Counted from the stretch's first letter, positions 612 through 10,897 are shown. The stretch is 44,572 nucleotides of DNA from Candidatus Lindowbacteria bacterium RIFCSPLOWO2_12_FULL_62_27 (GCA_001784175.1 MFPR01000027.1:579-45150); one strand, 5' to 3'. The notes: generated by a model not told the origin, from the sequence alone. Numbers and translations are program-made.

Positions 612-659
612 GAACAAAAGCAGCGGGCGTTGCCCGCAAAATGTTTTGGGGAGACAACT

Positions 660-848
660 ATGGTTCGAGTAACCCTGAGAGAAAGTCTTAAATCCAATCA
701 GCAACCATTATGCCTATGGGCCGCGATGTGCTCACGGACGGGGATTTATTTGCCCAGTGAGACAACCGTCAACCATATATCGCAGGCGGCCTTTAATAGT
801 GCTGATAGGAATCTCATAGACGCTCTCGGGAATAGGGTGCATACATGA
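660..848 (+). CDS. small hypothetical protein (62 aa); longer alternative start at ATG 630
   Basis: RBS GGGGAGA lies 5 nt upstream of ATG 660. The ORF sits between the predicted promoter and the intrinsic terminator. No recognizable domain. Confidence 0.3.
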   Translation: MVRVTLRESLKSNQQPLCLWAAMCSRTGIYLPSETTVNHISQAAFNSADRNLIDALGNRVHT

Positions 849-882
849 TCTAGTCGATCCAAGCGTATATTCGAACGCAAAA

Positions 883-924
883 CCCCGAGAGCCTTTCAAA
901 GGCTTTCGGGGTTTTTTGTTTTTT
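883..924 (+). terminator. Rho-independent terminator
   Basis: 11-bp GC-rich stem (ccccgagagcc / ggctttcgggg) with a 7-nt loop, followed by TTTTTTGTTTTTT. Confidence 0.65.
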
Positions 925-984
925 CTGGGGGTTTCGACATAGATCAGTTCTTTGACAAGTGAATACGGTGTTGTTTTTTCGTTT

Positions 985-1057
985 TGGAGAGTCGTCCAAA
1001 GGTAGGACCGCAGATTCTGGATCTGCGTATGCAGGTTCGATTCCTGCCTCTCCAGCC
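985..1057 (+). tRNA. tRNA-Gln(CTG), CCA encoded
   Basis: 7-bp acceptor tggagag/ctctcca. D stem gtcc/ggac. Anticodon stem gcaga/tctgc with loop ttCTGga. T arm gcagg-TTCGATT-cctgc. Discriminator G, then CCA. Confidence 0.8.
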
Positions 1058-1080
1058 AATTTTGTTTCGGGCAGTTTGGT

Positions 1081-1152
1081 GTGGTCGGAGCATGGCGGTC
1101 TGTGCGGCCGGTTGTGGCCCGGCATGCCTGGGTTCGACTCCCAGCGATCACC
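1081..1152 (+). tRNA. tRNA-His(GTG)
   Basis: Acceptor gtggtcg/cgatcac (one G-U). D stem gcat/gtgc with a GG loop. Anticodon stem gccgg/ccggc, loop ttGTGgc. T arm ctggg-TTCGACT-cccag. No G-1 or CCA encoded. Confidence 0.65.
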
Positions 1153-1167
1153 CCCGACTGCCTGGAT

Positions 1168-1252
1168 GGGCGTGTGGCAGAGCGGCGATTGCACCTGACT
1201 GTAGATCAGGCGGGCCTCTGGCCCTTCGGTGGTTCGAGTCCATCCACGCCCA
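1168..1252 (+). tRNA. tRNA-Tyr(GTA), class II
   Basis: Acceptor gggcgtg/cacgccc. 3-bp D stem. Anticodon stem cctga/tcagg, loop ctGTAga. Long variable arm. T arm ggtgg-TTCGAGT-ccatc. Confidence 0.8.
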
Positions 1253-1257
1253 TTTTT

Positions 1258-1331
1258 CCCGGTCGGAAGGAGATGGTCTCCTTGCCGCTCTCATAAGGCG
1301 GACATTCCGGGCTCGATACCCGGGGCCGGGA
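1258..1331 (+). tRNA. tRNA-Met(CAT), elongator or Ile2-type. Non-canonical T-loop CTCGATA.
   Basis: Acceptor cccggtc/ggccggg. D stem aagg/cctt. Anticodon stem ccgct/ggcgg, loop ctCATaa. T stem ccggg/cccgg. Confidence 0.6.
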
Positions 1332-1359
1332 CAAATTCTCAAGAAGGAGGTCGGAGAAA

Positions 1360-1587
1360 ATGGAGACGTACGTTTTGAAGTACACGGTGCGGTTCGTGAC
1401 GATTGACGATCCCACGGCGCGTCAGACTACTCAGCGGATTTTGACGACAGTTGGGGAATGTCTGAAAGACACACTCTCCGACCTGCCCTTGGTGGCGGAC
1501 ACGTTGGAGACGGAGGCGCGGTGTGTTCGTCACGGAGATCGGACTAACCGCGATATTCTGACTGGAAAATCTTCCGCATCAACATAA
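1360..1587 (+). CDS. hypothetical small protein (75 aa) inside the tRNA array
   Basis: Consensus RBS AAGGAGG at 1344-1350, 9 nt upstream of ATG 1360. The 228-nt ORF lies between tRNA-Met and the next tRNA-like gene. No recognizable domain. Confidence 0.35.
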   Translation: METYVLKYTVRFVTIDDPTARQTTQRILTTVGECLKDTLSDLPLVADTLETEARCVRHGDRTNRDILTGKSSAST

Positions 1588-1588
1588 C

Positions 1589-1667
1589 TGCGGAGGGGAG
1601 GTGGACGGCGGAGCCGTCTTCGAGGGCCCATAACCCTCTTAAGCCGGTGCGACTCCGGCCTCCGCTA
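1589..1667 (+). tRNA. tRNA-like, anticodon CAT, initiator-like features. About 79 nt with an expanded D region; possibly a pseudo or atypical tRNA.
   Basis: Acceptor gcggag/ctccgc with an unpaired 1:72. Anticodon stem gaggg/ccctc carries three consecutive G-C pairs, as in initiator tRNA. Loop ccCATaa. T stem gccgg/ccggc with loop TGCGACT. An extra 5-bp hairpin gacgg-cggag-ccgtc sits in the D region. Confidence 0.35.
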
Positions 1668-1668
1668 T

Positions 1669-1753
1669 GGACTCGTCGCCTAATTGGAATGGCCCCAGAC
1701 TCTTAATCTGGCGGGCGTTACGCCCATTGGGAGTTCGAGTCTCCCCGGGTCCA
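1669..1753 (+). tRNA. class II-shaped tRNA with anticodon CTT (Lys-type)
   Basis: Acceptor ggactcg/cgggtcc. 3-bp D stem gcc/ggc. Anticodon stem ccaga/tctgg, loop ctCTTaa. 17-nt extra arm forms hairpin gggcg-tta-cgccc. T arm gggag-TTCGAGT-ctccc. Discriminator A. Confidence 0.55.
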
Positions 1754-1760
1754 TTTGTAT

Positions 1761-1843
1761 TCCGAGGTCGCCTAATTGGTCGGGCAGCGCACTGTTAATG
1801 CGCCGCGGATTTCGCACTGTGGGTTCGAATCCCACCCTCGGAG
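1761..1843 (+). tRNA. class II-shaped tRNA with anticodon GTT (Asn-type)
   Basis: Acceptor tccgagg/cctcgga. 3-bp D stem gcc/ggc. Anticodon stem gcgca/tgcgc, loop ctGTTaa. 15-nt extra arm (gcg-gattt-cgc). T arm gtggg-TTCGAAT-cccac. Discriminator G. Confidence 0.55.
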
Positions 1844-1909
1844 TTTTTTCAAACGGTTTGAAGGAGGTGATGGAATTGAAATCGGACAAAGACGGTAAAG
1901 GGTAGTGAT

Positions 1910-1982
1910 GGGCTTGTAACTCAATTGGCTGAGTACCGGACTTTTAATCCGGGAGATGTGGGTTCGAGTCCCACCGGGCCCA
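1910..1982 (+). tRNA. tRNA-Lys(TTT)
   Basis: Acceptor gggcttg/cgggccc. D stem actc/gagt. Anticodon stem ccgga/tccgg, loop ctTTTaa. T arm gtggg-TTCGAGT-cccac. Confidence 0.85.
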
Positions 1983-1988
1983 AGATAC

Positions 1989-2073
1989 GGCGCAGTGGTG
2001 GAACTGGGATACACGCGAGTCTCAGAAACTCGTGCTCTATTCGAGCGTGAGAGTTCGAATCTCTCCTGCGCCA
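1989..2073 (+). tRNA. tRNA-Leu(CAG), class II
   Basis: Acceptor ggcgcag/ctgcgcc. 3-bp D stem. Anticodon stem cgagt/actcg, loop ctCAGaa. Extra arm gctc-tatt-cgagc. T arm gagag-TTCGAAT-ctctc. Discriminator A. Confidence 0.85.
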
Positions 2074-2078
2074 TTTTT

Positions 2079-2152
2079 GCGGCATTCGTATAGGGGCAAT
2101 ACATCACGTTGCCAACGTGAAGACACGAGTTCAATTCTCGTATGCCGCTCCA
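2079..2152 (+). tRNA. tRNA-Gly(GCC), CCA encoded
   Basis: Acceptor gcggcat/atgccgc. D stem gtat/atac. Anticodon stem tcacg/cgtga, loop ttGCCaa. T arm acgag-TTCAATT-ctcgt. Discriminator T, then CCA. Confidence 0.85.
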
Positions 2153-2155
2153 AGT

Positions 2156-2390
2156 GGAGGGTGAATCGATCGGGGATCGGCGCTGTGTGCTACACAGTTG
2201 GTCCGCCATGCGCGGATAGGGGTCGGCCGTTCGCGACATCCGTGTCGCTCGGCGGCACTTCCTCCGTCCATGGAGGTCGGGACCTTCGCCCTCCGTTACG
2301 GAGAGTCAACCTCGCAGGGCGAGGCACTGGTTTGAAACCAGAGGGTCCGCGAAAGTGGATGAGGATCGAGACCTCGGCTCTCCGCAAGAT
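2156..2390 (+). ncRNA. structured RNA-like element A (unassigned family). Domain 1 spans 2156-2294 and domain 2 spans 2299-2384.
   Basis: Not a tRNA. A 6-7 bp closing helix ggaggg(t)/(g)ccctcc encloses domain 1, which holds a 64-nt core nearly identical to element B. A second domain is closed by (c)ggagag/ctctcc(g). Internal hairpins tccgc-N5-gcgga and cctcc-gtccat-ggagg. Compensatory changes relative to paralog B. Confidence 0.4.
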
Positions 2391-2463
2391 GCGGGCGTGG
2401 TGTTCAACAGCAGCATGACAGTCTTCCAAACTGTCGGTGCCGGTGCAATTCCGGTCGCCCGCT
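2391..2463 (+). tRNA. tRNA-Gly(TCC)-like. Weak D arm, non-canonical T-loop TGCAATT.
   Basis: Acceptor gcgggcg/cgcccgc. Anticodon stem acagt/actgt, loop ctTCCaa. T stem gccgg/ccggt. The D loop lacks GG. Confidence 0.5.
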
Positions 2464-2469
2464 CAAAAC

Positions 2470-2543
2470 AGCCTCGTCGTCCAACTGGACAGGACACCTC
2501 TTTGCGAAGGAGGAGATTGCGCGTTCAAGTCGCGCCGAGGCTA
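2470..2543 (+). tRNA. tRNA-Arg(GCG)-like, atypical D arm
   Basis: Acceptor agcctcg/cgaggct. Anticodon stem cctct/ggagg, loop ttGCGaa. T arm gcgcg-TTCAAGT-cgcgc. The D region is one nucleotide too long with a short loop. Confidence 0.45.
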
Positions 2544-2545
2544 TA

Positions 2546-2780
2546 GGGAAGGTGAACCTCGCGGGCGGGGCGCTGTTTGGAAGACAGTCGGTCCGCTTAA
2601 AGCGGATGCGGGTCGGCCGTTCGCGACATCCCTGTCGCTCTGCGGCACTTCCTCCGTCCATGGAGGTCGGGACCGCCGCCTTCCGTTGTGGAGAGTGAAA
2701 CCGGGAAGCCCGATCGCCGTTCCGAAGACGGATGGCCCCGCCATGCGGGGTGGGGTGCGATACCTCCGCTCTCCGAAATA
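2546..2780 (+). ncRNA. structured RNA-like element B, paralog of A. Domain 1 spans 2547-2684 and domain 2 spans 2689-2775.
   Basis: Closing helix ggaagg(t)/(g)ccttcc. The 4th pair is A-U here versus G-C in element A. The 64-nt core at 2611-2674 is about 97% identical to 2221-2284. Hairpin tccgc-ttaaa-gcgga has the same stem as in A with a different loop. Second domain closed by (t)ggagag/ctctcc(g). Confidence 0.4.
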
Positions 2781-2851
2781 GGCCGGTAGTATCAACAGTA
2801 GAACGTCGGTCTCCAAAACCGAAGGTCTCGGGGCAGAACCGAGCCGGCCTG
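2780..2851 (+). tRNA. tRNA-Trp(CCA)-like. Poor D stem, non-canonical T-loop GGCAGAA.
   Basis: Acceptor aggccgg/ccggcct. Anticodon stem tcggt/accga, loop ctCCAaa. T stem ctcgg/ccgag. Confidence 0.45.
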
Positions 2852-2903
2852 TGACTGAAAGGAATCCCCGAGGTACTCGCCCGAAGGGCGGGTCGGGGAC
2901 CAT

Positions 2904-2976
2904 GGGCACTGAGCAGGCGTAGTCGTTGCGTCCGGCTGAAGACCGGAAGAGCGTGGTGCGATCCCACGAGTGCCCA
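2904..2976 (+). tRNA. tRNA-Phe(GAA). T-loop TGCGATC.
   Basis: Acceptor gggcact/agtgccc. D stem gcag/ttgc. Anticodon stem tccgg/ccgga, loop ctGAAga. T stem cgtgg/ccacg. Discriminator A. Confidence 0.7.
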
Positions 2977-2979
2977 CTT

Positions 2980-3049
2980 CGCGGCGAGCAGAGAAGCTCT
3001 GGGATGGTCTGCAAAACCATCAAAGTCGGGGCGGTACCGACCGCCGTGT
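2980..3049 (+). tRNA. tRNA-Cys(GCA)-like. Short D loop, non-canonical T-loop GGCGGTA.
   Basis: Acceptor cgcggcg/cgccgtg (one G-U). D hairpin cagag-aagc-ctctg. Anticodon stem atggt/accat, loop ctGCAaa. T stem gtcgg/ccgac. Confidence 0.45.
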
Positions 3050-3052
3050 CAC

Positions 3053-3123
3053 GCCCGATTAGGTCAGTGGCAGACCAACCGTCTTGTAAGCGGTGAACGT
3101 CGGCTCGATTCCGACATCGGGCT
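3053..3123 (+). tRNA. tRNA-Thr(TGT). T-loop CTCGATT.
   Basis: Acceptor gcccgat/atcgggc. D stem ggtc/gacc with a GG loop. Anticodon stem accgt/gcggt, loop ctTGTaa. T stem gtcgg/ccgac. Confidence 0.75.
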
Positions 3124-3130
3124 TACCTGC

Positions 3131-3203
3131 GCCCTCCTAATTCAATTGGACAGAAACGGGAGTTTCTACCTCTCGGATGCGTGTTCGAGTCACGCGGAGG
3201 GCA
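3131..3203 (+). tRNA. tRNA-Arg(TCT)
   Basis: Acceptor gccctcc/ggagggc. D loop contains GG. Anticodon stem gggag/ctctc, loop ttTCTac. T arm gcgtg-TTCGAGT-cacgc. Confidence 0.8.
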
Positions 3204-3209
3204 ATTCTC

Positions 3210-3280
3210 GCCGCCATAGTTCAGTGGCAGAACAGAAAACTCGTAATTTTCAGACCTGCGTTCGATTCGCAGTGGCGGCT
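3210..3280 (+). tRNA. tRNA-Thr(CGT)
   Basis: Acceptor gccgcca/tggcggc. D stem gttc/gaac. Anticodon stem gaaaa/ttttc, loop ctCGTaa. T arm ctgcg-TTCGATT-cgcag. Confidence 0.85.
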
Positions 3281-3284
3281 TTTC

Positions 3285-3356
3285 GGGGGCGTAGTGAGAA
3301 CGATAACACGGCTGGTCTGCACCCAGCAGATGAGAGTTTGAATCTCTCCGCCTCCA
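3285..3356 (+). tRNA. tRNA-Ala(TGC) with the G3:U70 identity pair
   Basis: Acceptor gggggcg/cgcctcc with G3-U70. Anticodon stem gctgg/ccagc, loop tcTGCac. T arm gagag-TTTGAAT-ctctc. Discriminator A. Confidence 0.75.
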
Positions 3357-3361
3357 CTTTT

Positions 3362-3447
3362 CGGCGTGTGGCTGAACGGTAAAAGCGCCGTCCTGATAAG
3401 GCGGTGGGCTGAAGTAGTCCGCGTGCGTTCGACTCGCACCGCGCCGA
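3362..3447 (+). tRNA. class II-shaped tRNA with anticodon GAT (Ile-type)
   Basis: Acceptor cggcgtg/cgcgccg. 3-bp D stem gct/agc with a GG loop. Anticodon stem ccgtc/ggcgg, loop ctGATaa. 18-nt extra arm (gggc-tgaagta-gtcc). T arm gtgcg-TTCGACT-cgcac. Discriminator A. Confidence 0.55.
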
Positions 3448-3455
3448 GCATTTAC

Positions 3456-3548
3456 CCACGGGTAGCATAGCGGCCAATGCAGCAGGCCTATAACCTGCGT
3501 TAGCTCCGGACTGGGGCGAGATCGTGGGTTCGAGTCCCACCCCGTGGA
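3456..3548 (+). tRNA. class II-shaped tRNA with anticodon TAT (AUA-reading or Ile2-type). Very long extra arm of about 25 nt.
   Basis: Acceptor ccacggg/cccgtgg. D stem gcat/atgc with a GG loop. Anticodon stem gcagg/cctgc, loop ccTATaa. T arm gtggg-TTCGAGT-cccac. Discriminator A. Confidence 0.45.
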
Positions 3549-3569
3549 TTTGATGTGTGAGGTACATAC

Positions 3570-3644
3570 GGCTCGGTGGTGTAGCAGCCTGCACACGGCT
3601 CTGTCACAGCCGAGGTACGAGGGCAGCACTCGTCCGAGCCGCCA
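3570..3644 (+). tRNA. tRNA-Asp(GTC), CCA encoded. Non-canonical T-loop GGCAGCA.
   Basis: Acceptor ggctcgg/ccgagcc. Anticodon stem cggct/agccg, loop ctGTCac. T stem acgag/ctcgt. Discriminator G, then CCA. Confidence 0.6.
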
Positions 3645-3645
3645 T

Positions 3646-3721
3646 CAGGGAATGGGATAATCTGGTAGTCCGCCGCACTTGGGACGCGGTCGTCCGAGTT
3701 CAAATCTCGGTTCCCTGACCA
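3646..3721 (+). tRNA. tRNA-Pro(TGG), CCA encoded
   Basis: Acceptor cagggaa/ttccctg. D stem ggat/gtcc with a GG loop. Anticodon loop ctTGGga. T arm ccgag-TTCAAAT-ctcgg. Discriminator A, then CCA. Confidence 0.75.
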
Positions 3722-3733
3722 AACTTCAAGTAC

Positions 3734-3808
3734 GGGCGCGTGGTCCAGCAGCGAAGACATCAGTCCTACAAACTGAAAACCTCGGTGCAAGTCCGAGCGT
3801 GCCCACCA
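3734..3808 (+). tRNA. tRNA-Val(TAC), CCA encoded. T-loop TGCAAGT.
   Basis: Acceptor gggcgcg/cgtgccc. Anticodon stem tcagt/actga, loop ccTACaa. T stem ctcgg/ccgag. Discriminator A, then CCA. Confidence 0.7.
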
Positions 3809-3865
3809 AATCTGACCGACCGGATGGAGGAAATGTCGCGGGCGCCAGGGATGGCGCAGGAGCGA

Positions 3866-3942
3866 CCTCTCGTCGCCCAATTGGAAAAGGCACCGATTTC
3901 CTAAATCGGGGACTGCGCGTTCGAATCGCGCCGAGAGGCCCA
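3866..3942 (+). tRNA. tRNA-Arg(CCT), CCA encoded
   Basis: Acceptor cctctcg/cgagagg. D stem gcc/ggc with a GG loop. Anticodon stem ccgat/atcgg, loop ttCCTaa. T arm gcgcg-TTCGAAT-cgcgc. Discriminator C, then CCA. Confidence 0.8.
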
Positions 3943-3955
3943 GTAAGACCAATGA

Positions 3956-4028
3956 CCGCTCGTAGTGAAACTGGATATCACGCGACGCTTCGAACGTCGT
4001 AATGAGGGTTCGAATCCTTCCGAGCGGA
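3956..4028 (+). tRNA. tRNA-Arg(TCG)
   Basis: Acceptor ccgctcg/cgagcgg. D stem gtga/tcac with a GG loop. Anticodon stem cgacg/cgtcg, loop ctTCGaa. T arm gaggg-TTCGAAT-ccttc. Confidence 0.85.
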
Positions 4029-4033
4029 TTTGT

Positions 4034-4116
4034 GGCGATGTGGCGGAACGGAATACGCGGCTGTTTCAAGAACAGTTGATCGTAAGATCGTGAGAGTTCG
4101 ACTCTCTCCATCGCCA
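4034..4116 (+). tRNA. tRNA-Leu(CAA), class II
   Basis: Acceptor ggcgatg/catcgcc. 3-bp D stem. Anticodon stem gctgt/acagt, loop ttCAAga. Extra arm gatcg-taa-gatcg. T arm gagag-TTCGACT-ctctc. Discriminator A. Confidence 0.8.
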
Positions 4117-4121
4117 ATTTT

Positions 4122-4205
4122 GCGGGCGTGGCGGAATGGGATACGCGGCGGATTTAAGACCCGCTGGGGCAGAGCCCCGTGCAGGTTCAAGTCCTGTCAC
4201 CCGCA
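4122..4205 (+). tRNA. tRNA-Leu(TAA), class II
   Basis: Acceptor gcgggcg/cacccgc (one mismatch). 3-bp D stem. Anticodon loop ttTAAga. Extra arm ggggc-aga-gcccc. T arm gcagg-TTCAAGT-cctgt. Discriminator A. Confidence 0.7.
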
Positions 4206-4208
4206 TTC

Positions 4209-4295
4209 GGCCGAGTGGTGGAACTGGAATACACGCGCGGTTGAGGTCCTCGTGGACGAAAGTAGTCCTTGCGAGTTCGAGTCTCGCCTCGGCCA
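4209..4295 (+). tRNA. tRNA-Leu(GAG), class II
   Basis: Acceptor ggccgag/ctcggcc. 3-bp D stem. Anticodon loop ttGAGgt. Extra arm ggac-gaaagta-gtcc. T arm gcgag-TTCGAGT-ctcgc. Discriminator A. Confidence 0.75.
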
Positions 4296-4300
4296 GTTTT

Positions 4301-4373
4301 GGGGCGGTAGGCGAATGGTAGAGCCGCCGGCCTTTCAAGCCGGAGTCTGTGGGTTCAAGTCCCATCCGCCCTG
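4301..4373 (+). tRNA. tRNA-Glu(TTC)
   Basis: Acceptor ggggcgg/ccgccct (G1-U72). D stem ggc/gcc. Anticodon stem ccggc/gccgg, loop ctTTCaa. T arm gtggg-TTCAAGT-cccat. Discriminator G. Confidence 0.8.
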
Positions 4374-4377
4374 TTGT

Positions 4378-4450
4378 GGGGGTATCGGCTAATCGGCAGG
4401 CCGCCGTGTTCTCAGCGCGGAAACCGCGGGTTCGAATCCCCGTACCCCTG
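4378..4450 (+). tRNA. tRNA-Glu(CTC)-like. Imperfect T stem.
   Basis: Acceptor gggggta/tacccct. D stem ggct/ggcc. Anticodon stem ccgtg/cgcgg, loop ttCTCag. Only 3 of 5 T-stem pairs form around TTCGAAT. Discriminator G. Confidence 0.45.
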
Positions 4451-4455
4451 GTCAT

Positions 4456-4530
4456 TGGGGAGTCGTCTAATAGGTAGGACGCGAGACTTTGGATCTCGCT
4501 ATGCAGGATCGAAGCCTGCCTCCCCAGCCA
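4456..4530 (+). tRNA. tRNA-Gln(TTG), CCA encoded. Non-canonical T-loop ATCGAAG.
   Basis: Acceptor tggggag/ctcccca. Same architecture as the first Gln. Anticodon stem cgaga/tctcg, loop ctTTGga. Discriminator G, then CCA. Confidence 0.7.
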
Positions 4531-4645
4531 TTTTCGAACAAATACGAACGTTGGCGCGGGCACGCCAGCGGCGCACAGGTGACCAAGTATCTTGGATTTC
4601 ATTTGTGCGTTCCGCCAATGGATTCTAAACGTGCCCGGAGCCAGA

Positions 4646-4718
4646 CGTTGGTTAGCTCAGCAGGCAGAGCATCAGGCTGTGAACCTGAGAGTCGCGGGTT
4701 CGAATCCCGCACCAACTT
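4646..4718 (+). tRNA. tRNA-His(GTG)-like, second copy. 1:72 mismatch.
   Basis: Acceptor cgttggt/accaact with C1 unpaired against T72. D stem gctc/gagc with a GG loop. Anticodon stem tcagg/cctga, loop ctGTGaa. T arm gcggg-TTCGAAT-cccgc. Confidence 0.55.
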
Positions 4719-5070
4719 CGGGTGGAAACACCCGCCAGTGGAAAACCGCGCAAGCGGGCTCAGAACGCGTCCGATGGAGACGAACGCTCGATCAACTGGC
4801 CGACGCGCGGATAATGGCCGCACCGGAAGTACGCGCCGGCGTCTGTCGGAGGCAACACAAATACGCCGCCCTGCAGCTCGCAGATACCGCATCGCCGACC
4901 GTGGCAACCTCCGACGGATTTCATACTCGTCGGAAAACCCATGCGAGCGATGCTCAAGCGACGCTCCGCGGATGATGTGCAGTTGGACTTGCCGTTCGTC
5001 TCCTGAGGGCCTTATTTCAACACATATCGAGAAAGGCGAAATCAAAAATCAGAAAGGGAGGTGAATCGCC

Positions 5071-6177
5071 ATGTTCTTGATTGGATACCGGAAGATTCGT
5101 TCCTACGAGAGGGGCCTGTACTTCTACGATGGGGAGTTCCGGAAAATTCTGGCCACAGGCCGACATTGGTTCGTGGATCCTCTGAACCGCATCCGGATCG
5201 ATGTTGTGTCCCAGCGCGACCCCTGGCTGGACCATGACAAGCTCGACATCATCGTCAAGTCCGGTGTCCTCAAGGACGAGGCGGTGGTACTGGACCTGAA
5301 GGACTATGAGCGCGCGCTCGTGTGGATCGACGGCCGGTTCAGCCGCGTGCTGGATGCAGGTCTCTACGCGATGTGGTCCAAGTTCCGCGACATCAAGACG
5401 GAGATCGTTGACGCGCGGGCCGTGCTGTTCGAGCACAAGAGCATCGACGTCATCCTGAAGTCGGGGGGTGTCGATGCAGTGCTCAATGTCTTCAACGTCG
5501 AGGAGGGTCACGCCGGCGTCTATTTCAAGGACGGTGAATACGTCAAGACACTGGCTCCGGGCAAGTATGCGACGTGGAAGAACGTCGGCAAGGTCAAGTT
5601 CTACCACCTCGACGTGCGCGAGACGGTACTCGACGTGGCCGGCCAGGAGATCATGACGGCCGACAAGGTCACGCTCCGGATGAACGCGATCGTGACCTAT
5701 CGCATCGTTGATGCCCGCAAGTCCGTCGAAACGGTCGGAGACGTGGCGCAGGCGCTGTATCGTGAGGCGCAGCTGGCGCTTCGTGCCGCAGTCGGCACAC
5801 GAGAGCTTGAGCCGCTTCTGGTCGACAAGACCGACGTTGCGAAGGAACTCGAGTCCGTCATTCGCCGACGCGCGAGCGAGTTCGGCATTCACGTGATCGG
5901 TCTTGGCATTCGAGACATCATCCTGCCGGGCGACATGAAGACGTTGCTCAACAAGGTGCTCGAGGCCAAGAAGGCGTCCGAGGCGAACGTGATTCTGCGA
6001 CGCGAGGAGACGGCAGCCATGCGCAGCCAGCTCAACACGGCGAAGCTCATGGAGGACAATGCGGTTCTGATGCGCCTCAAGGAACTGGAGGTGCTGGAGA
6101 AGGTCGCGGGCGCGTCTAAGCTGAGCGTCGTGCTGGGTGAGAAGGGATTGGCCGAGCGTGTGGTCAATCTGCTGTGA
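5071..6177 (+). CDS. SPFH/band-7 (stomatin/prohibitin-like) domain protein with three N-terminal ~35-aa repeats
   Basis: RBS GGGAGGTGA lies 6 nt before the ATG. A 368-aa ORF. Its C-terminal half has SPFH-like composition (TADKVTLRMNAIVTYRI...GIRDIILPGDM...coiled-coil tail). The N-terminus has three tandem ~35-aa repeats. Confidence 0.8.
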   Translation: MFLIGYRKIRSYERGLYFYDGEFRKILATGRHWFVDPLNRIRIDVVSQRDPWLDHDKLDIIVKSGVLKDEAVVLDLKDYERALVWIDGRFSRVLDAGLYAMWSKFRDIKTEIVDARAVLFEHKSIDVILKSGGVDAVLNVFNVEEGHAGVYFKDGEYVKTLAPGKYATWKNVGKVKFYHLDVRETVLDVAGQEIMTADKVTLRMNAIVTYRIVDARKSVETVGDVAQALYREAQLALRAAVGTRELEPLLVDKTDVAKELESVIRRRASEFGIHVIGLGIRDIILPGDMKTLLNKVLEAKKASEANVILRREETAAMRSQLNTAKLMEDNAVLMRLKELEVLEKVAGASKLSVVLGEKGLAERVVNLL

Positions 6178-6389
6178 GCAGTAAGGAGGAACGATGTTTA
6201 CGGTAGACGAGTTTGAAAGCGGCGGAGGGGGGCCGGATCAAAAACGCAGCGGCGGCCCCCCTCCTTGGAGCCGGGTGATCCGAACAAACAGGCAACACCG
6301 TATTCAACGCCCGCATGGTGTGAGTGGCAGCACGTCGCCGGGGTAAGGCGGAGGTCTCGGATCAAAACCGAGTGCGGGCTTGATCAATT

Positions 6390-7061
6390 ATGTTCAGGAG
6401 GAATGATGTGACTGGTGTACTGGTTCAACCAACGTTGCTTTTGAATTCCAGTTTTCTGCCGGTGTCGGTCATCCGTGTGATGGAGGCAATCTGTCTGCTC
6501 GTTACTTCCAAAGCCGATCTAATAGACGGTGACGAGAGGGAACCGATCCGTTCGCAAAGATTGTCGATCCCTCTGCCGAGGGTCGTACGCCTGTTGAATT
6601 TCAACGGGATTCCGTCGAACCCGGCCTGGTCAAGATTGAAGGTGATTTACCGGGACGACATGACCTGCGCCTGGTGCGGCAAGCGCGGCCGTATGGAGGA
6701 ACTGGACTGCGACCACATCATTCCCCGATCACGGTGGCACGTTTGTCCGCCGAATCTTCGCCGAGCATACGAAGTTCCACGAGTGAAACTCCAGAACATT
6801 GCAGCCCCTTGGAATTCGTGGATGAACACCCTCGCGGCCTGTCGAAAATGCAACGCCGCCAAGGGAAATCTCTATCCATGGGAGATGGGCCACCGCCCCC
6901 TCTGGTCGCCGTACGAGCCGGAATACGTCCCATCCATCATTGTCAGCTTCGAGCGAGCAAAAAATCTTGGCTGGCTGGATTATCTGCTCACGCGCCGCGG
7001 GACGCTCGTCTATCCGTCGGGAGTGCGTGCCGTGGGTGTGCCCTCCAGAAAACGGATATAG
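6390..7061 (+). CDS. HNH endonuclease family protein
   Basis: RBS AGGAGGAATG precedes the ATG. HNH motif CAWCGK...DHIIP...N...CRKCNAAKG (CxxC...H...N...CxxC). Confidence 0.75.
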   Translation: MFRRNDVTGVLVQPTLLLNSSFLPVSVIRVMEAICLLVTSKADLIDGDEREPIRSQRLSIPLPRVVRLLNFNGIPSNPAWSRLKVIYRDDMTCAWCGKRGRMEELDCDHIIPRSRWHVCPPNLRRAYEVPRVKLQNIAAPWNSWMNTLAACRKCNAAKGNLYPWEMGHRPLWSPYEPEYVPSIIVSFERAKNLGWLDYLLTRRGTLVYPSGVRAVGVPSRKRI

Positions 7062-7075
7062 TATTTAATACTAAT
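7059..7075. repeat. 17-bp AT-rich near-palindromic site TAGTATTTAATACTAAT, copy 1
   Basis: Identical 17-mer at 9114-9130. Both copies sit in short AT-rich intergenic islands of a GC-rich genome. Confidence 0.7.
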
Positions 7076-7154
7076 TTATTGACTACTGGACAAATCACTG
7101 GTACATGCAGTATAGACACTGTAAGACCGAATAAACTGATGGGGGTGGTCCATT

Positions 7155-7433
7155 GTGACGGTTCCAGAAACAGAATCGAACGAGGCACAGAAAACCGAAG
7201 AAATCTGTAAGCGTAAACCCGGGATTCCGGACGTGCCCATTCCATCTGGCCCGTACCTGAATTCTGTAGAAGCCGCCTGTTATTTGCGCTTGTCGCTCGG
7301 CACAATCGCCAACCTTGTATCCGAGGGGAAGATTCCTTTTGCAAAAGCGGGCCGCCGGCGCGTCTTCCGTAGGACCGACCTCGATGAATATGTCGAGAAG
7401 TCGTACAAGCCGGCAGTCCACAACTCGTTTTAG
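7155..7433 (+). CDS. excisionase/Xis-like helix-turn-helix DNA-binding protein
   Basis: GTG start with a GGGGGTGG RBS. The C-terminal segment SVEAACYLRLSLGTIANLVSEGKIPFAKAGRRRVFRRTDLDEYV resembles the excisionase-family (MerR-like) HTH. Confidence 0.55.
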   Translation: MTVPETESNEAQKTEEICKRKPGIPDVPIPSGPYLNSVEAACYLRLSLGTIANLVSEGKIPFAKAGRRRVFRRTDLDEYVEKSYKPAVHNSF

Positions 7434-7945
7434 GCCGGCTCTTCAGGGAAATCCTTCCTGGGAAAAGGAATAATTTTGTTCTGCCCAAGATCTTTCTTCA
7501 CGGCAGATTCCTCGAAGCCTGGCAACGGTGCTTGTGGCGGAGTTTCCTTGCGAGTTTCCGTCCGGTAGATTTCCTCTTTGTTTTTCATTCGAAAGTGTCG
7601 CACCAAATCTTCGACGCCCCGCTGCTGACCATCCTTTAAGTCCTCGATCCCGATCAAAGATCCTCGGGACCATTTTGTGGTCAGGATGCCATCCCCGGGC
7701 AGTTTCTGATGGGCGCCTATATCTTGGCCGAGAACATAGAGCGCCTGCTGATAAGGGATGACATTTGGTGTTCCCGATGATGAGAGGATCTTCAAATACT
7801 GATCCAAGGTCGGCACCGCGCGCCCAGTGAGAATCTTTCGGAATTCAGGAGCCTTCAGGAATGGCAGATCAAGATGACGGGTGATTCGACGTAAGAAGAC
7901 ATGTAGCCTCAGTGGCTTCTTCAACGGGGTCGTGGGCTCGTTCAA
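7430..7945 (-). CDS. hypothetical protein (171 aa)
   Basis: ORF convergent with the xis-like gene. No recognizable domain. Confidence 0.4.
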   Translation of the reverse strand: MNEPTTPLKKPLRLHVFLRRITRHLDLPFLKAPEFRKILTGRAVPTLDQYLKILSSSGTPNVIPYQQALYVLGQDIGAHQKLPGDGILTTKWSRGSLIGIEDLKDGQQRGVEDLVRHFRMKNKEEIYRTETRKETPPQAPLPGFEESAVKKDLGQNKIIPFPRKDFPEEPA

Positions 7946-8214
7946 TTACCACAGGAATGCTGCTTCGACTTCGACTGCGTTCGGTTCATCGTCGGCCTCC
8001 TCGATATGAATATCCCCCTCAGAATTCCGGTGATTCGGGAGGCGACGGGGTTTTCCTGAACGACGTTGATCAAGTATCGCGACAGATCACTGATCAGTCA
8101 AAATCAGATTTTCTCTGGCTGAATCTTTTTGTTTGGAGGATTGATTGGCGGCAGATTTTCCACAATCGCGCGGCGGATACTACAAGTTTCTAAAAGGGAT
8201 ACTACCAGTACAGC

Positions 8215-8283
8215 GTGACAAGATGCACAGGCCGGACGTGACAGCATATCGTGCGTTTCTCTCGGACGGCCGTGTGACAAGAT
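8215..8283. repeat. iteron-like direct repeats GTGACA(A/G)(G/C)AT x3, at 8215, 8238 and 8274
   Basis: Three copies within 70 bp in the non-coding gap downstream of the Rep-like gene. Two copies are identical (GTGACAAGAT). Confidence 0.5.
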
Positions 8284-8324
8284 ACCGTGCACAATTCCCA
8301 GAATCCACACGGAAGTGTGGACAA

Positions 8325-9095
8325 CTATTGTGGAACCGACGGCGGGGATGGCCTCAAGATCAGATGTCGAGCTTCGAGTTCGACTTTCGCATCCGGATAG
8401 ACTGCGAGTACCCGGATGAGATTTTCACGCAACGCGCGTTTAAAAAAGCGCAGCCGGGAATAATCGGCTCCAAACTGACAGAACAGGGCACATAGGGGAA
8501 TAGCCGTTGCGGTACGGAGATAACTGAAGCGGTAGGTGAGCCAGGCATAGAGATCGATCGCCAGAGATGAGCGTTTCAAGGTGCAGATGGCATCCGGTCG
8601 CAATGGAATCGACGATTGCACCGCATGAAGATAAAACTCCGCCGTTACGCGGATCTCTGTTTGAAAGAGGGATCGTTCATACGGTCGCTTGGGGTCCCAC
8701 CAGAGTTCAAACTCCACGGCGACTCTCATTTGCTCGATCACGCCGGACATTCGACCGAATGCGATGGTTGACGCCAGAAGCCGGCTGACTTGGTCGTAGA
8801 ATCGCCGGCGCGTGTGGCCGTCCGGACTCAAGCCAAGCCCTGCTAGAAACGAATGGTAGGACTCGTCGAGTTCTATTCGCCGTTGCCCTGTGATCAAAAT
8901 CTGCCTGGTGAGCCACATGAGAAACAGCCGGGGGTAACTCGCGTAGGGCAGACCCAGATTCGGGTTGGCCCGAACATTGAGGACATAGTCATTGGCGCGG
9001 CGGGTCCAGATGGTTTCACCGGCGCGGTCGGAATGGGGGAGGTTCGCCACAACGAAGGACTTCGGAAGATAGACGGGGTTGGTCTTGGCATTCAT
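8325..9095 (-). CDS. hypothetical protein, possibly a plasmid/ICE-type replication initiator (weak call)
   Basis: 256-aa ORF flanked by iteron-like repeats and TCCACA/TGTGGA motifs. It is divergent from the HTH regulator and integrase genes. The functional guess rests on context only. Confidence 0.45.
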   Translation of the reverse strand: MNAKTNPVYLPKSFVVANLPHSDRAGETIWTRRANDYVLNVRANPNLGLPYASYPRLFLMWLTRQILITGQRRIELDESYHSFLAGLGLSPDGHTRRRFYDQVSRLLASTIAFGRMSGVIEQMRVAVEFELWWDPKRPYERSLFQTEIRVTAEFYLHAVQSSIPLRPDAICTLKRSSLAIDLYAWLTYRFSYLRTATAIPLCALFCQFGADYSRLRFFKRALRENLIRVLAVYPDAKVELEARHLILRPSPPSVPQ

Positions 9096-9113
9096 GTGGC
9101 CGCAAGGTATTAG

Positions 9114-9130
9114 TATTTAATACTAATGTC
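9114..9130. repeat. 17-bp site TAGTATTTAATACTAAT, copy 2
   Basis: Identical to 7059-7075. Extended, it reads ATTAGTATTTAATACTAAT, which is nearly palindromic. Confidence 0.7.
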
Positions 9131-9150
9131 AATGTGTTTGGGGCAATTTG

Positions 9151-9212
9151 TCCACAATACCAACAGGCTATCCACAAACCTTGACATGACCGGTCGCGGC
9201 TGGGATAATTCG
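9151..9212 (+). promoter_or_regulatory. two TCCACAA direct repeats (9154-9160 and 9174-9180) followed by a promoter TTGACA (9184-9189) -17 nt- GATAAT (9207-9212)
   Basis: Near-consensus -35/-10 with 17-nt spacing. Two TCCACAA boxes 20 bp apart lie immediately upstream. The inverse TGTGGA appears at 8316 and 8331, and TCCACA at 8304 and 8160. Confidence 0.55.
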
Positions 9213-9237: not shown

Positions 9238-9669
9238 ATGGAGCAAGGTGAAAGGATATACGAGATATTCCGCAAGCGCGCCAAGGCGCGAGAGCTGACC
9301 GTTCAAGAAATCGTCAACGGGCTCGGCAAGAAGGATACAACCCACTACAGCCTTTATCAGTTCTCCATCGGCAAGAGCATGCCGCCGATTCACAAGCTCG
9401 CCGCGTATTTCGAATCCGTGGGCATGCGCCTCCTTCTTGAGGCGGATGGAAACGTCTATGCGCTTGAGTTCAAGGACCGGGTCCAGCCGAAGCGGGAGGG
9501 CGACCGGATGATGGTCGGCGAGCGCGTCAGTGTCGGAGGCGAGTACGCGGATCTCACGCCGGACCAGATCAGCGCCGTCGAAGCCCTGGTTGCGTCGTTC
9601 CGAGCCACAAACAAGCGCGTGAAACGATCCCGGGTCGAAACAGCGGCCAAGGTCAGACGGGCCGCGTAG
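9238..9669 (+). CDS. helix-turn-helix (XRE/Cro-like) transcriptional regulator
   Basis: 143-aa ORF downstream of the strong promoter. N-terminal segment ELTVQEIVNGLGKKDTTHYSLYQFSIGKSMPPIHKLAAYFESVGMRL resembles an HTH. Confidence 0.55.
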   Translation: MEQGERIYEIFRKRAKARELTVQEIVNGLGKKDTTHYSLYQFSIGKSMPPIHKLAAYFESVGMRLLLEADGNVYALEFKDRVQPKREGDRMMVGERVSVGGEYADLTPDQISAVEALVASFRATNKRVKRSRVETAAKVRRAA

Positions 9670-9681
9670 GGGACAAATCCC

Positions 9682-10788
9682 ATGGGCGTTCGAGCGATCA
9701 CGCGATTACCGAGTGGCGAATATCGCGTCAATTTCTATTACTGGAATCAGATCGGCATGAAGCATCGCGGGCGGAAGAAATTCCGTACGCTGCGGCTTGC
9801 AGAGACGTTCTATGCCGAGAGGATTCGTGAATTTGAAGCGAAGGTGCATGTTGGCTCGAAGGAGCGAGGGTCGATCACGGTGAAGCAATTCCTGGACCAG
9901 CATTATTATCCATGGGCGCAGAAGGCCAAGAAATCTTATCCCGTGGAAAGAGTGTTCATGAGGAATACCGAAGTGCGATGGGGCGAACGCCGACTCTCGT
10001 CAATCACTGTGTTTGATATTGAAAAGTGGCGGATTGAAATGAAGCAGAAGGTCTGCCCGGCGACCGTCAGCCGCCGACTGGCGTATCTTCGGTCCTTCTT
10101 CAAATTCGCGCATGCCGGCATGACGGACGAGGATGGCCACACGGTCGGCGGCGGATTCATCGGCGACAATCCGATGCGGCATGTTCGAAGCCCGAAAACG
10201 AAGCTGCCTCTTCGACCGCCGACGATTCTGGCGCCGGATGAAATTGCGAGGCTCAAGCCCGATGGGACGCGCGGGATGGATCTCGTTTTATTCTGCATTT
10301 ATTCGGGGATGCGCCGGGGCGAGATATTCCGGATGCGGTACGAGGACATAGATCGCGTGGCCGGCGTCATCCGGATCCCCGTCACGAAAAACGACGAGCC
10401 GCGGATCATTCCGTTGACGAAACAGCTTGCCGGTATTATTGACAGACAACCGGTGGACGATTCGGGATTTGTTTTTTCATGGAAGGGAAGGCAAACTAGG
10501 GACTGTCGTAGCGCGATCAATCAGGCGCTCTGGCGCGTGGGGATCACACGGCGGGTCCGGATGCATGACCTTCGCCACACGTTCGGCTCGTACCTGGCCA
10601 TGAACGGGGTAGACTTGGACGAAAGGATGGCTCTGATGGGGCACAAGACAATCACAGCGGCGCGGATTTATACCCATTATTATACGAAACGCCTGTCGGA
10701 GTCGATGGAGAGGCTGATGGAGGCCTATGAGACGGCCGAGGAGAAAACAAAAGGGCACAAAAAGGGCACTGAGGCGATTGCCGTATGA
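9682..10788 (+). CDS. int: tyrosine-type site-specific recombinase / phage integrase
   Basis: C-terminal catalytic motifs: R...HDLRHTFGSYLAMNGVDLDERMALMGHKTITAARIYTHY (HxxR...Y). 368 aa. Lies immediately upstream of tRNA-Thr(CGT). Confidence 0.9.
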   Translation: MGVRAITRLPSGEYRVNFYYWNQIGMKHRGRKKFRTLRLAETFYAERIREFEAKVHVGSKERGSITVKQFLDQHYYPWAQKAKKSYPVERVFMRNTEVRWGERRLSSITVFDIEKWRIEMKQKVCPATVSRRLAYLRSFFKFAHAGMTDEDGHTVGGGFIGDNPMRHVRSPKTKLPLRPPTILAPDEIARLKPDGTRGMDLVLFCIYSGMRRGEIFRMRYEDIDRVAGVIRIPVTKNDEPRIIPLTKQLAGIIDRQPVDDSGFVFSWKGRQTRDCRSAINQALWRVGITRRVRMHDLRHTFGSYLAMNGVDLDERMALMGHKTITAARIYTHYYTKRLSESMERLMEAYETAEEKTKGHKKGTEAIAV

Positions 10789-10824: not shown

Positions 10825-10897
10825 GCCAACGTAGCTCAGACGGTAGAGCAACGCACTCGTAATGCGTAGGTCGGCGGTTCGATTCCGCCCGTTGGCT
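10825..10897 (+). tRNA. tRNA-Thr(CGT)
   Basis: Acceptor gccaacg/cgttggc. D stem gctc/gagc with loop AGACGGTA. Anticodon stem acgca/tgcgt, loop ctCGTaa. T arm ggcgg-TTCGATT-ccgcc. Discriminator T. Confidence 0.85.

Follow-up and report, generated by a model that had tools for sequence, protein, structure and literature searches.

What do two identical AT-rich palindromes do when they stand at either side of an excisionase-like gene and a replication initiator gene? The pair in question sits in a module of a Candidatus Lindowbacteria MAG (groundwater bacterium) that comprises an excisionase-family HTH_17 gene (the xis-like gene), orf171, an origin-like spacer, a RepA_C initiator, orf143, a tyrosine integrase and a tRNA-Thr gene, all within the window, i.e. 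the whole stretch of 44,572 nucleotides that was analysed. A first-pass annotation had offered repressor operators, recombination sites of a nested element, or an oriT/ori element, and of these three readings the first is the best supported, by dyad symmetry, promoter positions, the presence of two copies only and conservation in two relatives. Judged from the sequence, the odds are slightly in favour of the palindromes being operators of one two-fold-symmetric, sequence-specific, element-encoded DNA-binding protein that would couple the expression of the xis-like gene and repA.

The repeat itself, annotated before as a 17-bp near-palindromic AT-rich pair, is real, exact and dyad-symmetric. 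The 17-mer TAGTATTTAATACTAAT is found at 7059–7075 and 9111–9127, both on the plus strand and 2,052 bp apart; the second copy had been placed three bases off, at 9114–9130. The AT-rich islands described at both sites are likewise present (local GC 37–40%), while the genome figure of 65% GC was too high, the whole window having 61.7% and the DNA beyond position 12000 having 63.4%. The setting had been described correctly, with one copy after the HNH gene, the other in the divergent Rep-like region, and the xis-like/Rep-like block flanked by the two. The sites are as follows:

7057–7075, unstranded: PAL-1, TATAGTATTTAATACTAAT, including the exact 17-mer at 7059–7075
9109–9127, unstranded: PAL-2, a perfect 9-1-9 palindrome, ATTAGTATT-T-AATACTAAT, including the exact 17-mer at 9111–9127

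The arms of PAL-1 comprise 7 bp around a central T (TAGTATT-T-AATACTA), and the half-sites of the palindrome are about 10 bp, or roughly one helical turn, apart from centre to centre. PAL-2 lies between the divergent RepA_C gene (8325–9095, minus) and orf143 (9238–9669), and the first three bases of the PAL-1 17-mer form the TAG stop codon of the HNH ORF (6390–7061).

With respect to further copies, for which a search had been proposed, the 17-mer occurs nowhere else in the 44.5-kb window at up to three mismatches, and a scan of public genomes returned more than 119 single chance matches in AT-rich genomes and two copies in a known relative only, among the matches listed. None of 100 dinucleotide shuffles contained a match (chance expectation 0), and about 24% of Markov-simulated windows contain some exact 17-mer repeat, but no AT-rich one; the other exact 17-mer repeats of the window all fall within its tRNA array. 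An IMG/VR scan with PAL-1 plus TTGACT yielded four contigs, all from one unrelated phage group of 38% GC, and an Rfam search gave no match at or near the palindromes. In itself the palindrome pair is an ordinary regulatory motif, the kind being known and the instance new.

The surroundings can be read by comparison with two relatives, L011, which is 93% identical at the nucleotide level, and L146, a 7-kb contig of a third and far more diverged island. The genes of the module are:

7155–7433, plus: excisionase-family HTH_17 gene, 92 aa (PF12728, E 3e-13; TIGR01764, E 5e-13; PHROG excisionase families)
7430–7945, minus: orf171, which lies between both palindromes in all three islands
8325–9095, minus: RepA_C replication initiator gene (repA), 256 aa (PF04796, E 3e-17)
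9238–9669, plus: orf143, an orphan gene coupled to the integrase gene
9682–10788, plus: tyrosine integrase, 368 aa (PF00589, E 1e-24; PHROG_1, E 2e-60)
10825–10897, plus: tRNA-Thr(CGU), just 3′ of which the homology with L011 stops

The module combines a tyrosine integrase, an excisionase-family gene and a RepA_C initiator adjoining a chromosomal attachment site. Since homology with L011 is lost just 3′ of tRNA-Thr(CGU) (the blastn block runs to 10905, and direct comparison places the end a few bases beyond the tRNA), this gene marks the island boundary, which is also seen as lower GC; a second copy of the tRNA-Thr segment, corresponding to the other island end, was not found in the DNA compared. 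All genes of the module are under purifying selection relative to L011, the HTH_17 gene with 13 synonymous and five non-synonymous codon changes. Family searches with orf171 found no match, but it is coding, since 28 of its 48 substitutions against L011 fall at codon position 3.

The AlphaFold2 model of the initiator (pLDDT 89) matches RctB domains 2–3, RepE54, a Rep-DUE complex and TrfA in Foldseek searches (E down to 2e-7, TM 0.5–0.66), and RepA is therefore predicted to be a two-winged-helix (WH1-WH2) initiator of the iteron type. More than 1,000 plasmid homologues annotated as RepA were found in a plasmid collection, all at most 38% identical to it, and a conjugative Aeromonas plasmid encodes a 498-aa protein with a RepA_C match; no homologue of 42–95% identity was present among 5.8 billion proteins, and an IMG/VR search with RepA gave no match. 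The repA gene has no Shine-Dalgarno sequence, whereas its neighbours have one.

By consensus reading, the palindromes overlap or abut putative core promoters in the window as well as in L011, the -10 hexamers being weak. The promoters are:

9104–9132, minus: putative repA promoter, TTGACA (9132–9127), a 17-nt spacer that is PAL-2, and TACCTT (9109–9104)
7079–7107, plus: putative promoter of the xis-like gene, TTGACT (7079–7084), a 17-nt spacer and TACATG (7102–7107)
9181–9209, plus: predicted near-consensus sigma-70 promoter of the orf143-integrase operon, TTGACA, 17 nt and GATAAT (11/12 matches in the scan)

The repA promoter was read by eye from the sequence, the consensus scan having missed its -10 hexamer, which matches at only 3/6 positions; with the repA ATG at 9095 the leader would be about 2 nt long. 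PAL-1 ends 3 bp upstream of the TTGACT box, and the -10 hexamer of the xis-like promoter is weak and varies across the islands (TACATG, TAAATG, TAAGCA). In the orf143 promoter a TG precedes the second hexamer, and PAL-2 does not overlap it.

This geometry suggests how the operators might act. Transcription of repA would start about 2 nt before its ATG, and because PAL-2 fills the whole 17-nt spacer of the putative repA promoter, a protein bound there should block RNA polymerase and so silence the initiator for as long as the element stays in the chromosome. An integrated copy would need such silencing, given that RepA is predicted to be an initiator of the iteron type. At PAL-1 the same protein could repress or autoregulate the xis-like promoter, so that one regulator would tie together the transcription of two functions for leaving the chromosome, an excisionase-family gene and a replication initiator. 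The exact repeat, the perfect dyad, the promoter geometry and the conservation of the sites while their flanks diverge or are replaced count for operators; against them count the weak -10 hexamers (3/6) and the setting of the second palindrome in L146, described below, which fits an architectural or recombination-accessory role at least equally well.

The proposal that the palindromes are themselves an oriT/ori element is not supported, as origin-like features are found elsewhere:

7946–8324, unstranded: origin-like non-coding spacer downstream of repA, a candidate origin from its sequence features
9137–9176, unstranded: two DnaA-box-like/iteron-like boxes, TTGTCCACA (9148–9156) and CTATCCACA (9168–9176), between PAL-2 and the orf143 promoter

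The spacer combines a GATC cluster and an AT-rich stretch (8054–8140), a perfect DnaA-box match TTTTCCACA (8156–8164), two copies of GGATACTAC 22 bp apart (8175 and 8197) that are conserved in L011, and GTGACAAGAT twice together with GTGACAGCAT (8215, 8238 and 8274); inverted TCCACA boxes follow at 8304–8337. The 22-mer at 9137–9158 is 77% identical to 8145–8166. We infer that 7946–8324 may act as a replication origin, since its position matches that of oriV downstream of the RepA_C gene in Salmonella genomic island 1 (SGI1), which has an int-xis-oriV-rep module (Huguet et al. 2020, PMC7433901).

Given the predicted RepE/RctB/TrfA two-winged-helix fold, the palindrome might also be an operator for RepA itself, as in F, pPS10 and R6K, with dimers bound to the inverted repeat and monomers to the iterons of the origin. 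PAL-2 does overlap the putative repA core promoter, and the GGATACTAC repeats, spaced by exactly 22 bp and conserved in L011, have ATACTA in common with the half-site. These 6 bp are, however, the sole link between the palindrome and the origin region; the TGTGGACAA-type and GTGACAAGAT repeats near repA are equally good iteron candidates and unrelated to the palindrome. Moreover, autorepression alone would leave the integrated origin unsilenced and gives no reason for a site at the xis promoter. This reading was downgraded because the L146 contig keeps the pair, with one mismatch each, without repA; in addition, the search of 5.8 billion proteins gave no RepA homologue of 42–95% identity. We regard it as very unlikely. 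The initiators F RepE, pPS10 RepA and R6K pi share the predicted fold of the window RepA and likewise have an inverted repeat overlapping the rep promoter, but the window differs from these iteron plasmids in that the palindrome pair survives without repA in L146, overlaps the candidate iterons by 6 bp only, and has its second copy at an unrelated promoter.

How much weight conservation can bear differs between the relatives. In L011 both 17-mers are unchanged (PAL-2 also in L012), and the PAL-2 intergenic region is 96.5% identical as compared to 93% for coding sequence; since a 17-mer stays intact by chance at 93% identity with p ~0.29, L011 alone is weak evidence. In L146 both palindromes are present with one mismatch each, against 0.01 expected, in non-coding DNA that is otherwise unalignable with the window. 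The xis-like gene (72% identical at the protein level, adjoining the first palindrome, PAL-1′) and orf171 (38% identical) are retained there, while repA (by tblastn), orf143 and the integrase were not found on the 7-kb contig. The arrangement of PAL-1, a 3-bp gap and TTGACT is kept in both L011 and L146. The second copy in L146, PAL-2′, is on the opposite strand, so that relative orientation is not conserved; no recognisable promoter lies at this site, the nearest good one, for the orf171 homologue, being about 245 bp away.

The exact direct repeats, 2,052 bp apart, do bracket what could be a self-contained replicon (xis, orf171, origin and repA), and it had been suggested that they are att-like sites or inverted repeats of a nested element, i.e. 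attL/attR-like repeats of an excisable 2-kb unit. The comparison speaks against this: neither the integrase nor orf143 is enclosed by the repeats, both copies are present at a spacing of 2,052 bp in every one of the organism's 17 contigs, which come from at least 10 samples, the inverted copies of L146 would give inversion and not excision, and excision would remove the repA -35 box. Neither the deletion junction GGATA-PAL-GTCAATG nor the circle junction GGTAT-PAL-TTATTGAC was seen as a variant among the 17 contigs. A metagenome scan for recombinant junctions returned one unrelated AT-rich contig and was uninformative, the organism and its native sites being absent from that dataset. We see next to no chance that the pair delimits such a unit.

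A stronger competitor is a role in site-specific recombination, as an architectural or accessory site that the excisionase-family protein or the integrase would bind close to the attachment site in order to direct excision or integration, with only secondary effects on transcription. In L146 a tRNA-Thr(GGU) gene stops just after its anticodon loop at an att-type junction, and PAL-2′ is 10 bp away from it, within an att arm and inside the roughly 100 bp of the crossover expected of Xis binding sites; the gene adjoining PAL-1 belongs to the excisionase family; and a 6-7-6 reading of the AT-rich site, like the core of a tyrosine recombinase, is possible too. Yet in the window and in L011 the distances to the tRNA-Thr boundary are 1.7 kb and 3.7 kb, and both palindromes stand in promoter positions. 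Each site has a single dyad, as opposed to the several direct repeats typical for recombination directionality factors; the palindrome has no similarity to the integrase-tRNA junction region, and the left junction of the tRNA cassette described below has no second copy. We consider an accessory recombination site to be unlikely.

Directly beside PAL-1 lies a further segment:

494–7058, plus: 6.56-kb cassette with a 28-gene tRNA array, a Band_7/SPFH gene, tRNA-Thr(GGU) and the HNH gene (29 tRNA genes in total)

The window lineage alone has this cassette, whose right end meets PAL-1 exactly; in its place L011 and L146 have a short GC-hairpin segment. It is a more unusual object than the palindromes. 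As the cassette ends at 7058 and the HNH ORF reads into the palindrome, where its stop codon lies, the palindrome might be an insertion target, either a cleavage site of the HNH protein or a fragile, hairpin-forming site. There is very little chance of this: the palindrome pre-dates the cassette, since L011 and L146 have the former without the latter; the event replaced about 66 bp instead of inserting cleanly; and a check of the left junction for microhomology or a further palindrome copy showed no palindrome and only GTATT in common, which is not meaningful. A break just outside the palindrome would also be expected if disruption of an operator is selected against. No relatives of the HNH gene were found for comparison in an IMG/VR search.

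If the palindromes are operators, which protein binds them? The 92-aa HTH_17 protein, whose gene lies 80 bp away from PAL-1, is found together with the pair in each of the three islands, and no other protein that does so is recognisable as DNA-binding; within the operator explanation it is the binder with a probability that falls a little short of even; two subunits would occupy the inverted AATACTAA half-sites. Against it counts that proteins of the HTH_17/Xis type usually bind head-to-tail direct repeats, not palindromes. It would also be odd logic for an excisionase to repress repA in an element that needs joint excision and replication. The three palindrome-bearing islands amount to three alleles, too few for covariation between site and binder.

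The product of orf143, again within the operator explanation, is a rather doubtful candidate. The gene is predicted to share a transcript with the integrase, made from a strong promoter, as is the case for the ImmR, Stl and CI-type repressors. The first-pass annotation had labelled both proteins as HTH, which stands for 7155–7433 (PF12728) but not for 9238–9669, where Pfam, PHROG, NCBIfam and PDB profile searches found no match, so that the proposed HTH binder has no demonstrable HTH; the palindrome pair moreover persists on the L146 contig without orf143. An assignment to the XRE-type repressors was rejected as well, the Cro/cI-like N-terminus being apparent by eye only, with nothing of the kind in the profile searches, an hhalign probability of 0.4%, and a poor single-sequence AlphaFold2 model (pLDDT 42). 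Among 1.8 billion representatives only two remote homologues of orf143 were found, one of which likewise immediately precedes an integrase gene and diverges from an HTH_17 gene; at the two loci (L138 and L142) the coupling to the integrase is alike, but no PAL-like site is present. The remaining share of the candidates falls to orf171, RepA, or a host or helper factor.

It is conceivable, though quite unlikely, that an excisionase-family complex silences repA, autoregulates xis, serves as an att-proximal architectural site and marks cargo capture, a dual use based on PAL-2′ lying 10 bp from the crossover in L146 and on the 29-tRNA cassette as captured cargo.

Known systems offer several parallels to the operator explanation. 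In ICEBs1 (ImmR), SaPIs/PICIs (Stl) and lambda (CI at OL/OR), the regulator gene is next to int and divergent from the excision and replication genes, and identical symmetric operators stand at more than one promoter; the layout of the window would be similar. Homology of orf143 or the 92-aa protein to ImmR, Stl or CI was not detected in family and profile searches, nor is an inducing signal or an anti-repressor evident. AlpA of P. aeruginosa, whose site lies between the -35 and -10 boxes, was considered as an analogue and set aside as not comparable, being a Q-like protein that acts as a monomer on a 6-bp element.

In SGI1, a single regulator has sites at the promoters of both xis and rep (RepA_C), and rep is followed downstream by oriV (PMC7433901). 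Like SGI1, the window element is integrative and encodes a tyrosine integrase, an excisionase-family protein and an initiator of the RepA_C family, with an origin (a candidate in the window) that combines iterons, a DnaA box and an AT-rich stretch downstream of rep, between rep and xis. Common-regulator sites at the xis and rep promoters would be a further likeness, and in SGI1 excision and replication switch together. In contrast, the SGI1 regulator is the activator AcaCD from a helper IncC plasmid, and its boxes are non-palindromic (PMC7433901), whereas the site of the window fills the putative repA core promoter, which implies repression, and its binder is probably element-encoded. Gene order differs too, with the integrase on the opposite side of rep, the host belongs to a different phylum, and RepA is at most 38% identical to plasmid RepA_C proteins, a figure that comes from the plasmid collection and not from SGI1 Rep. 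By analogy, the element would work like SGI1 without being filed as a member of the SGI1 family.

For repression by a palindrome within the initiator promoter, a precedent is the IncU plasmid RA3. Its small dimeric Cro/cI-type repressor RepA binds the palindrome IR1, and IR1 overlaps both hexamers, -35 and -10, of the promoter from which the initiator is expressed (Markowska-Barkic et al. 2022, PMC9455977). RA3 RepA is clearly of the Cro/cI type (HigA-like), and its gene precedes that of the initiator within one operon (PMC9455977); RA3 has one operator, no xis and no integration, as opposed to the two sites, the xis-like gene and the integrase of the window element.

Candidatus Lindowbacteria is a lineage without genetic tools, and if the operator explanation is true, the palindromes would be the control switch of an element there, undescribed so far, that both integrates and replicates itself. 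The parts of this element would comprise RepA_C and the origin as a minimal replicon, the integrase and its attachment site, and a switch made of two operators. Should the dual use apply, one small cis-element would integrate excision, replication control and cargo acquisition in a mobile element of a candidate phylum. Under the operator explanation the logic of SGI1, in which one regulator has a site before both xis and rep, would extend to a distant phylum, which suggests that the coupled control of excision and replication may be a general design.

The 17-mer TAGTATTTAATACTAAT is present exactly at positions 7059-7075 (copy 1) and 9111-9127 (copy 2); the identical pair described in the first-pass annotation was thus recovered, its second coordinate having been given 3 bases too high. 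No further site with up to three mismatches was found elsewhere in the 44.5-kb window, and 100 dinucleotide shuffles yielded zero matches. Some exact 17-mer repeat arises in about 24% of simulations of the same size and composition, but AT-rich palindromic repeats of this length are rare; the window's remaining exact 17-mers all lie within the tRNA array. Copy 2 is part of a perfect 9-1-9 palindrome, ATTAGTATT-T-AATACTAAT (9109-9127), the arms of copy 1 comprise 7 bp, and the G + C content around the sites is 37-40% compared to 61.7% window-wide. A second motif common to both neighbourhoods, which is not kept in the related island L146 (see below), is the 9-mer TGGACAAAT at 7087-7095, found in reverse complement at 9146-9154; these two places, one beside each palindrome, are its only occurrences in the window.

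The host organism is a Candidatus Lindowbacteria MAG from the Rifle aquifer (GCA_001782795.1), and the G + C content of positions 1 to about 10900 is below that of the remaining window. From left to right, this part contains a 28-tRNA array (985-4719), a Band_7/SPFH gene, tRNA-Thr(GGU), an HNH gene ending in a stop codon that coincides with bases 1-3 of copy 1, copy 1 itself, the xis-like HTH_17 gene, orf171, a 380-bp non-coding spacer, the RepA_C gene (repA), copy 2, orf143, a tyrosine integrase gene and tRNA-Thr(CGU). The genes and promoters around the two sites are as follows.

Genes and promoters around the palindrome copies
7079-7084: TTGACT of the putative xis-like promoter, followed by 17 nt, a weak -10 hexamer and the xis-like gene (consensus reading)
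7155-7433: excisionase-family HTH_17 (xis-like) gene
between the HTH_17 gene and the 380-bp spacer: orf171, minus strand
8325-9095: RepA_C initiator gene, minus strand
9132..9127 (TTGACA) and 9109..9104 (TACCTT): putative repA promoter, minus strand, its 17-nt spacer being the palindrome (consensus reading)
9181-9209: promoter of orf143 and the integrase gene, strong consensus with 11/12 matches, not overlapped by copy 2

On the minus strand copy 2 reads CATTGACATTAGTATTAAATACTAATACCTTGCGGCCACATG. The repA start codon (ATG at 9095) lacks a Shine-Dalgarno sequence and follows the end of the -10 box after 8 nt, and the genes neighbouring repA have clear GGAGG-type ribosome-binding sites; from this we infer that the repA mRNA is nearly leaderless and that the palindrome occupies its core promoter. 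Copy 1 lies upstream of the TTGACT hexamer, from which its end is separated by 3 bp.

All module genes show purifying selection, and orf171 can be regarded as a real gene since 28/48 substitutions relative to a relative's copy fall on codon position 3. The confident AlphaFold2 model of RepA (pLDDT 89) matches RctB domains 2-3, RepE54, a Rep-DUE complex and TrfA, and is therefore predicted to have the two-winged-helix fold of iteron-type initiators. Downstream of repA, the non-coding spacer looks like an origin by its sequence: it contains a GATC cluster, an AT-rich stretch, the sole perfect DnaA-box match in the window (8156-8164), two occurrences of GGATACTAC 22 bp apart and three of GTGACA(A/G)(G/C)AT, with additional TCCACA boxes on either side of repA. 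The 22-mers at 9137-9158 and 8145-8166, one on each side of repA, are 77% identical and may be iterons for RepA or DnaA boxes. In reverse complement the former reads ATTGTGGACAAATTGCCCCAAA and includes the DnaA-box-like TGTGGACAA; it resembles the F-plasmid iteron TGTGACAAATTGCCCT, a 16-mer that occurs 9 times in one paper located by text search.

In all 17 contigs of the same organism, from at least 10 samples, both copies are found 2,052 bp apart. The island L011 (GCA_016202645.1) is 93% identical to the window island and has both 17-mers intact, the intergenic region of copy 2 being 96.5% identical as compared to about 93% for genes; past the tRNA the chromosomal flanks of the two genomes are unlike. 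Its homology runs from tRNA-Thr(CGU) back to copy 1, stops precisely at the left end of that copy and resumes at window positions 493-1, and therefore the segment 494-7058 is replaced there by about 66 bp with a GC hairpin.

The more distant island L146 (GCA_023249255.1) was reached via the sole intermediate xis-like homologue (72% identical). Its left part consists of a YAcAr gene, the same conserved non-coding region of about 900 nt, the GC hairpin and the site PAL-1' (TAATATTTAATACTAAT), followed by 3 bp and TTGACT, the xis-like gene and an orf171 counterpart (38% identical). Then come roughly 400 non-coding bp that contain a good promoter of their own and, on the opposite strand relative to PAL-1', the site PAL-2' (TAGTATTTAATACGAAT). 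Each site has 1 mismatch, with 0.01 matches expected by chance, and the flanking non-coding DNA does not align to the window. No repA, orf143 or integrase gene is present on the L146 contig; a search of 5.8 billion proteins found neither RepA homologues of 41%-96% identity nor orf143 homologues beyond its own cluster.

Ten bp beyond PAL-2' lies the 5' half of a tRNA-Thr(GGU), which ends directly after the anticodon loop (ATGGTAA) and is followed by chromosomal genes. This stretch (L146 3466-3540) is an att-type junction and points to the anticodon loop as the place of recombination in this island family, which may also explain the place of the window island 5' of an intact tRNA-Thr.

The segment absent from both relatives, which carry the GC-hairpin segment in its place, is a 6.56-kb cassette (494-7058) meeting copy 1 to the base at its right end. 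ARAGORN predicts 29 tRNA genes, namely the 28 of the array and tRNA-Thr(GGU) at 6309-6380, and Rfam one more (2780-2851); Met, Trp, Cys, Asp and Ser tRNAs are missing. The cassette also holds a small ORF whose promoter is consensus-like (~583-610), besides the Band_7/SPFH and HNH genes. Because both cassette-free relatives have the site, and also share the GC hairpin whose place the cassette has taken, the palindrome is older than the cassette, and therefore the HNH gene arrived beside the site and did not create it. Within the array, a 131-nt direct repeat (85% identical; 2179-2309 and 2569-2699) fills two tRNA-free gaps. Several of the array tRNAs that were called for class I amino acids exceed the usual length, at 87 nt (Lys), 85 nt (Asn) and 89 and 93 nt (Ile); this may reflect long variable arms, introns or mis-assignment.

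Long array tRNAs and the conserved non-coding region
1167-1253, 1668-1844 and 3361-3548: long array tRNAs
window 1-493, continuing left (as L001 18604-19527); L011 12100-13026; L146 1229-2080: non-coding region of about 900 nt

This GC-rich region between copy 1 and the YAcAr gene is 78-95% conserved in all three islands and is non-coding, as judged from 1-nt indels. Its hairpins have conserved stems with variable loops or compensatory changes (e.g., GCGGCAA/TTGCCGC to GCGGCGG/TCGCCGC at window 227-257), two of them being terminator-like; it has no Rfam match and may be a structured non-coding RNA.

Comparison of the three alleles indicates that the palindrome is an element in its own right, discrete and under selection. 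Its two copies are direct repeats in the window but inverted repeats in L146; such independence of orientation is in keeping with a symmetric protein-binding site and counts against a directional att pair. The proposal of att sites of a nested element, for which four recombination junctions are conceivable (GGATA or GGTAT, the palindrome, then TTATTGAC or GTCAATG), is made less likely, too, by the retention of both copies in 17/17 contigs. The suggestion of repressor operators fared better, as the dyad sites that lie at the putative repA and xis promoters in the window are kept in relatives, these promoters being consensus readings. We therefore lean slightly towards the palindrome being the operator of one element-encoded protein that couples both promoters: bound within the spacer, it would repress repA, and the same protein would act at the xis promoter, so that an integrated iteron-type origin would be kept silent and excision and replication would be switched together.

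A primarily architectural site for the excisionase-family protein is rather improbable, though compatible with an operator role: in L146 the site lies 10 bp from the crossover in the anticodon loop, but it ranks second because in the window the island boundary is 1.7 and 3.7 kb away from the sites, which occupy promoter positions. Quite unlikely is an otherwise attractive RepE-type arrangement, with Rep dimers on the inverted repeat and monomers on iterons, since across the window, L011 and L146 the palindrome stays with the xis-like gene and orf171 but not with repA, which the L146 contig lacks.

For the operator, the leading candidate binder is the HTH_17 protein, whose DNA-binding region is nearly identical in the window and L146. 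Of the two supposed HTH proteins, only this one (7155-7433) held up, orf143 (9238-9669) having no DNA-binding match in any search made. Nevertheless orf143 is a possible binder: it is integrase-coupled and divergent from an HTH_17 gene every time, including in the unrelated element L138, and in a circular form of the L146 island it might be situated immediately beyond the att site; its promoter is strong and constitutive-looking. L138 (6990-9600; same Rifle sample, scaffold_45), a second, unrelated small module of like logic, carries an orf143-like gene (31% identical), then an integrase gene, divergent from HTH_17 and replication-protein-like HTH_36 genes, with GTGTCACC repeats and a DnaA-box-like site beyond; it contains no PAL-like palindrome.

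In SGI1, the RepA_C gene is followed by an oriV with iterons, DnaA boxes and an AT-rich stretch adjoining xis, and one regulator has sites at both the xis and rep promoters (PMC7433901); the window parallels this layout in its RepA_C gene, its origin-like spacer between repA and the xis-like side and its common site at both putative promoters. The tRNA cassette merits study of its own, as does the long conserved non-coding region. The palindromes are a conserved pair of predicted protein-binding sites within the putative control region of an integrating, SGI1-like replicon from a candidate phylum.
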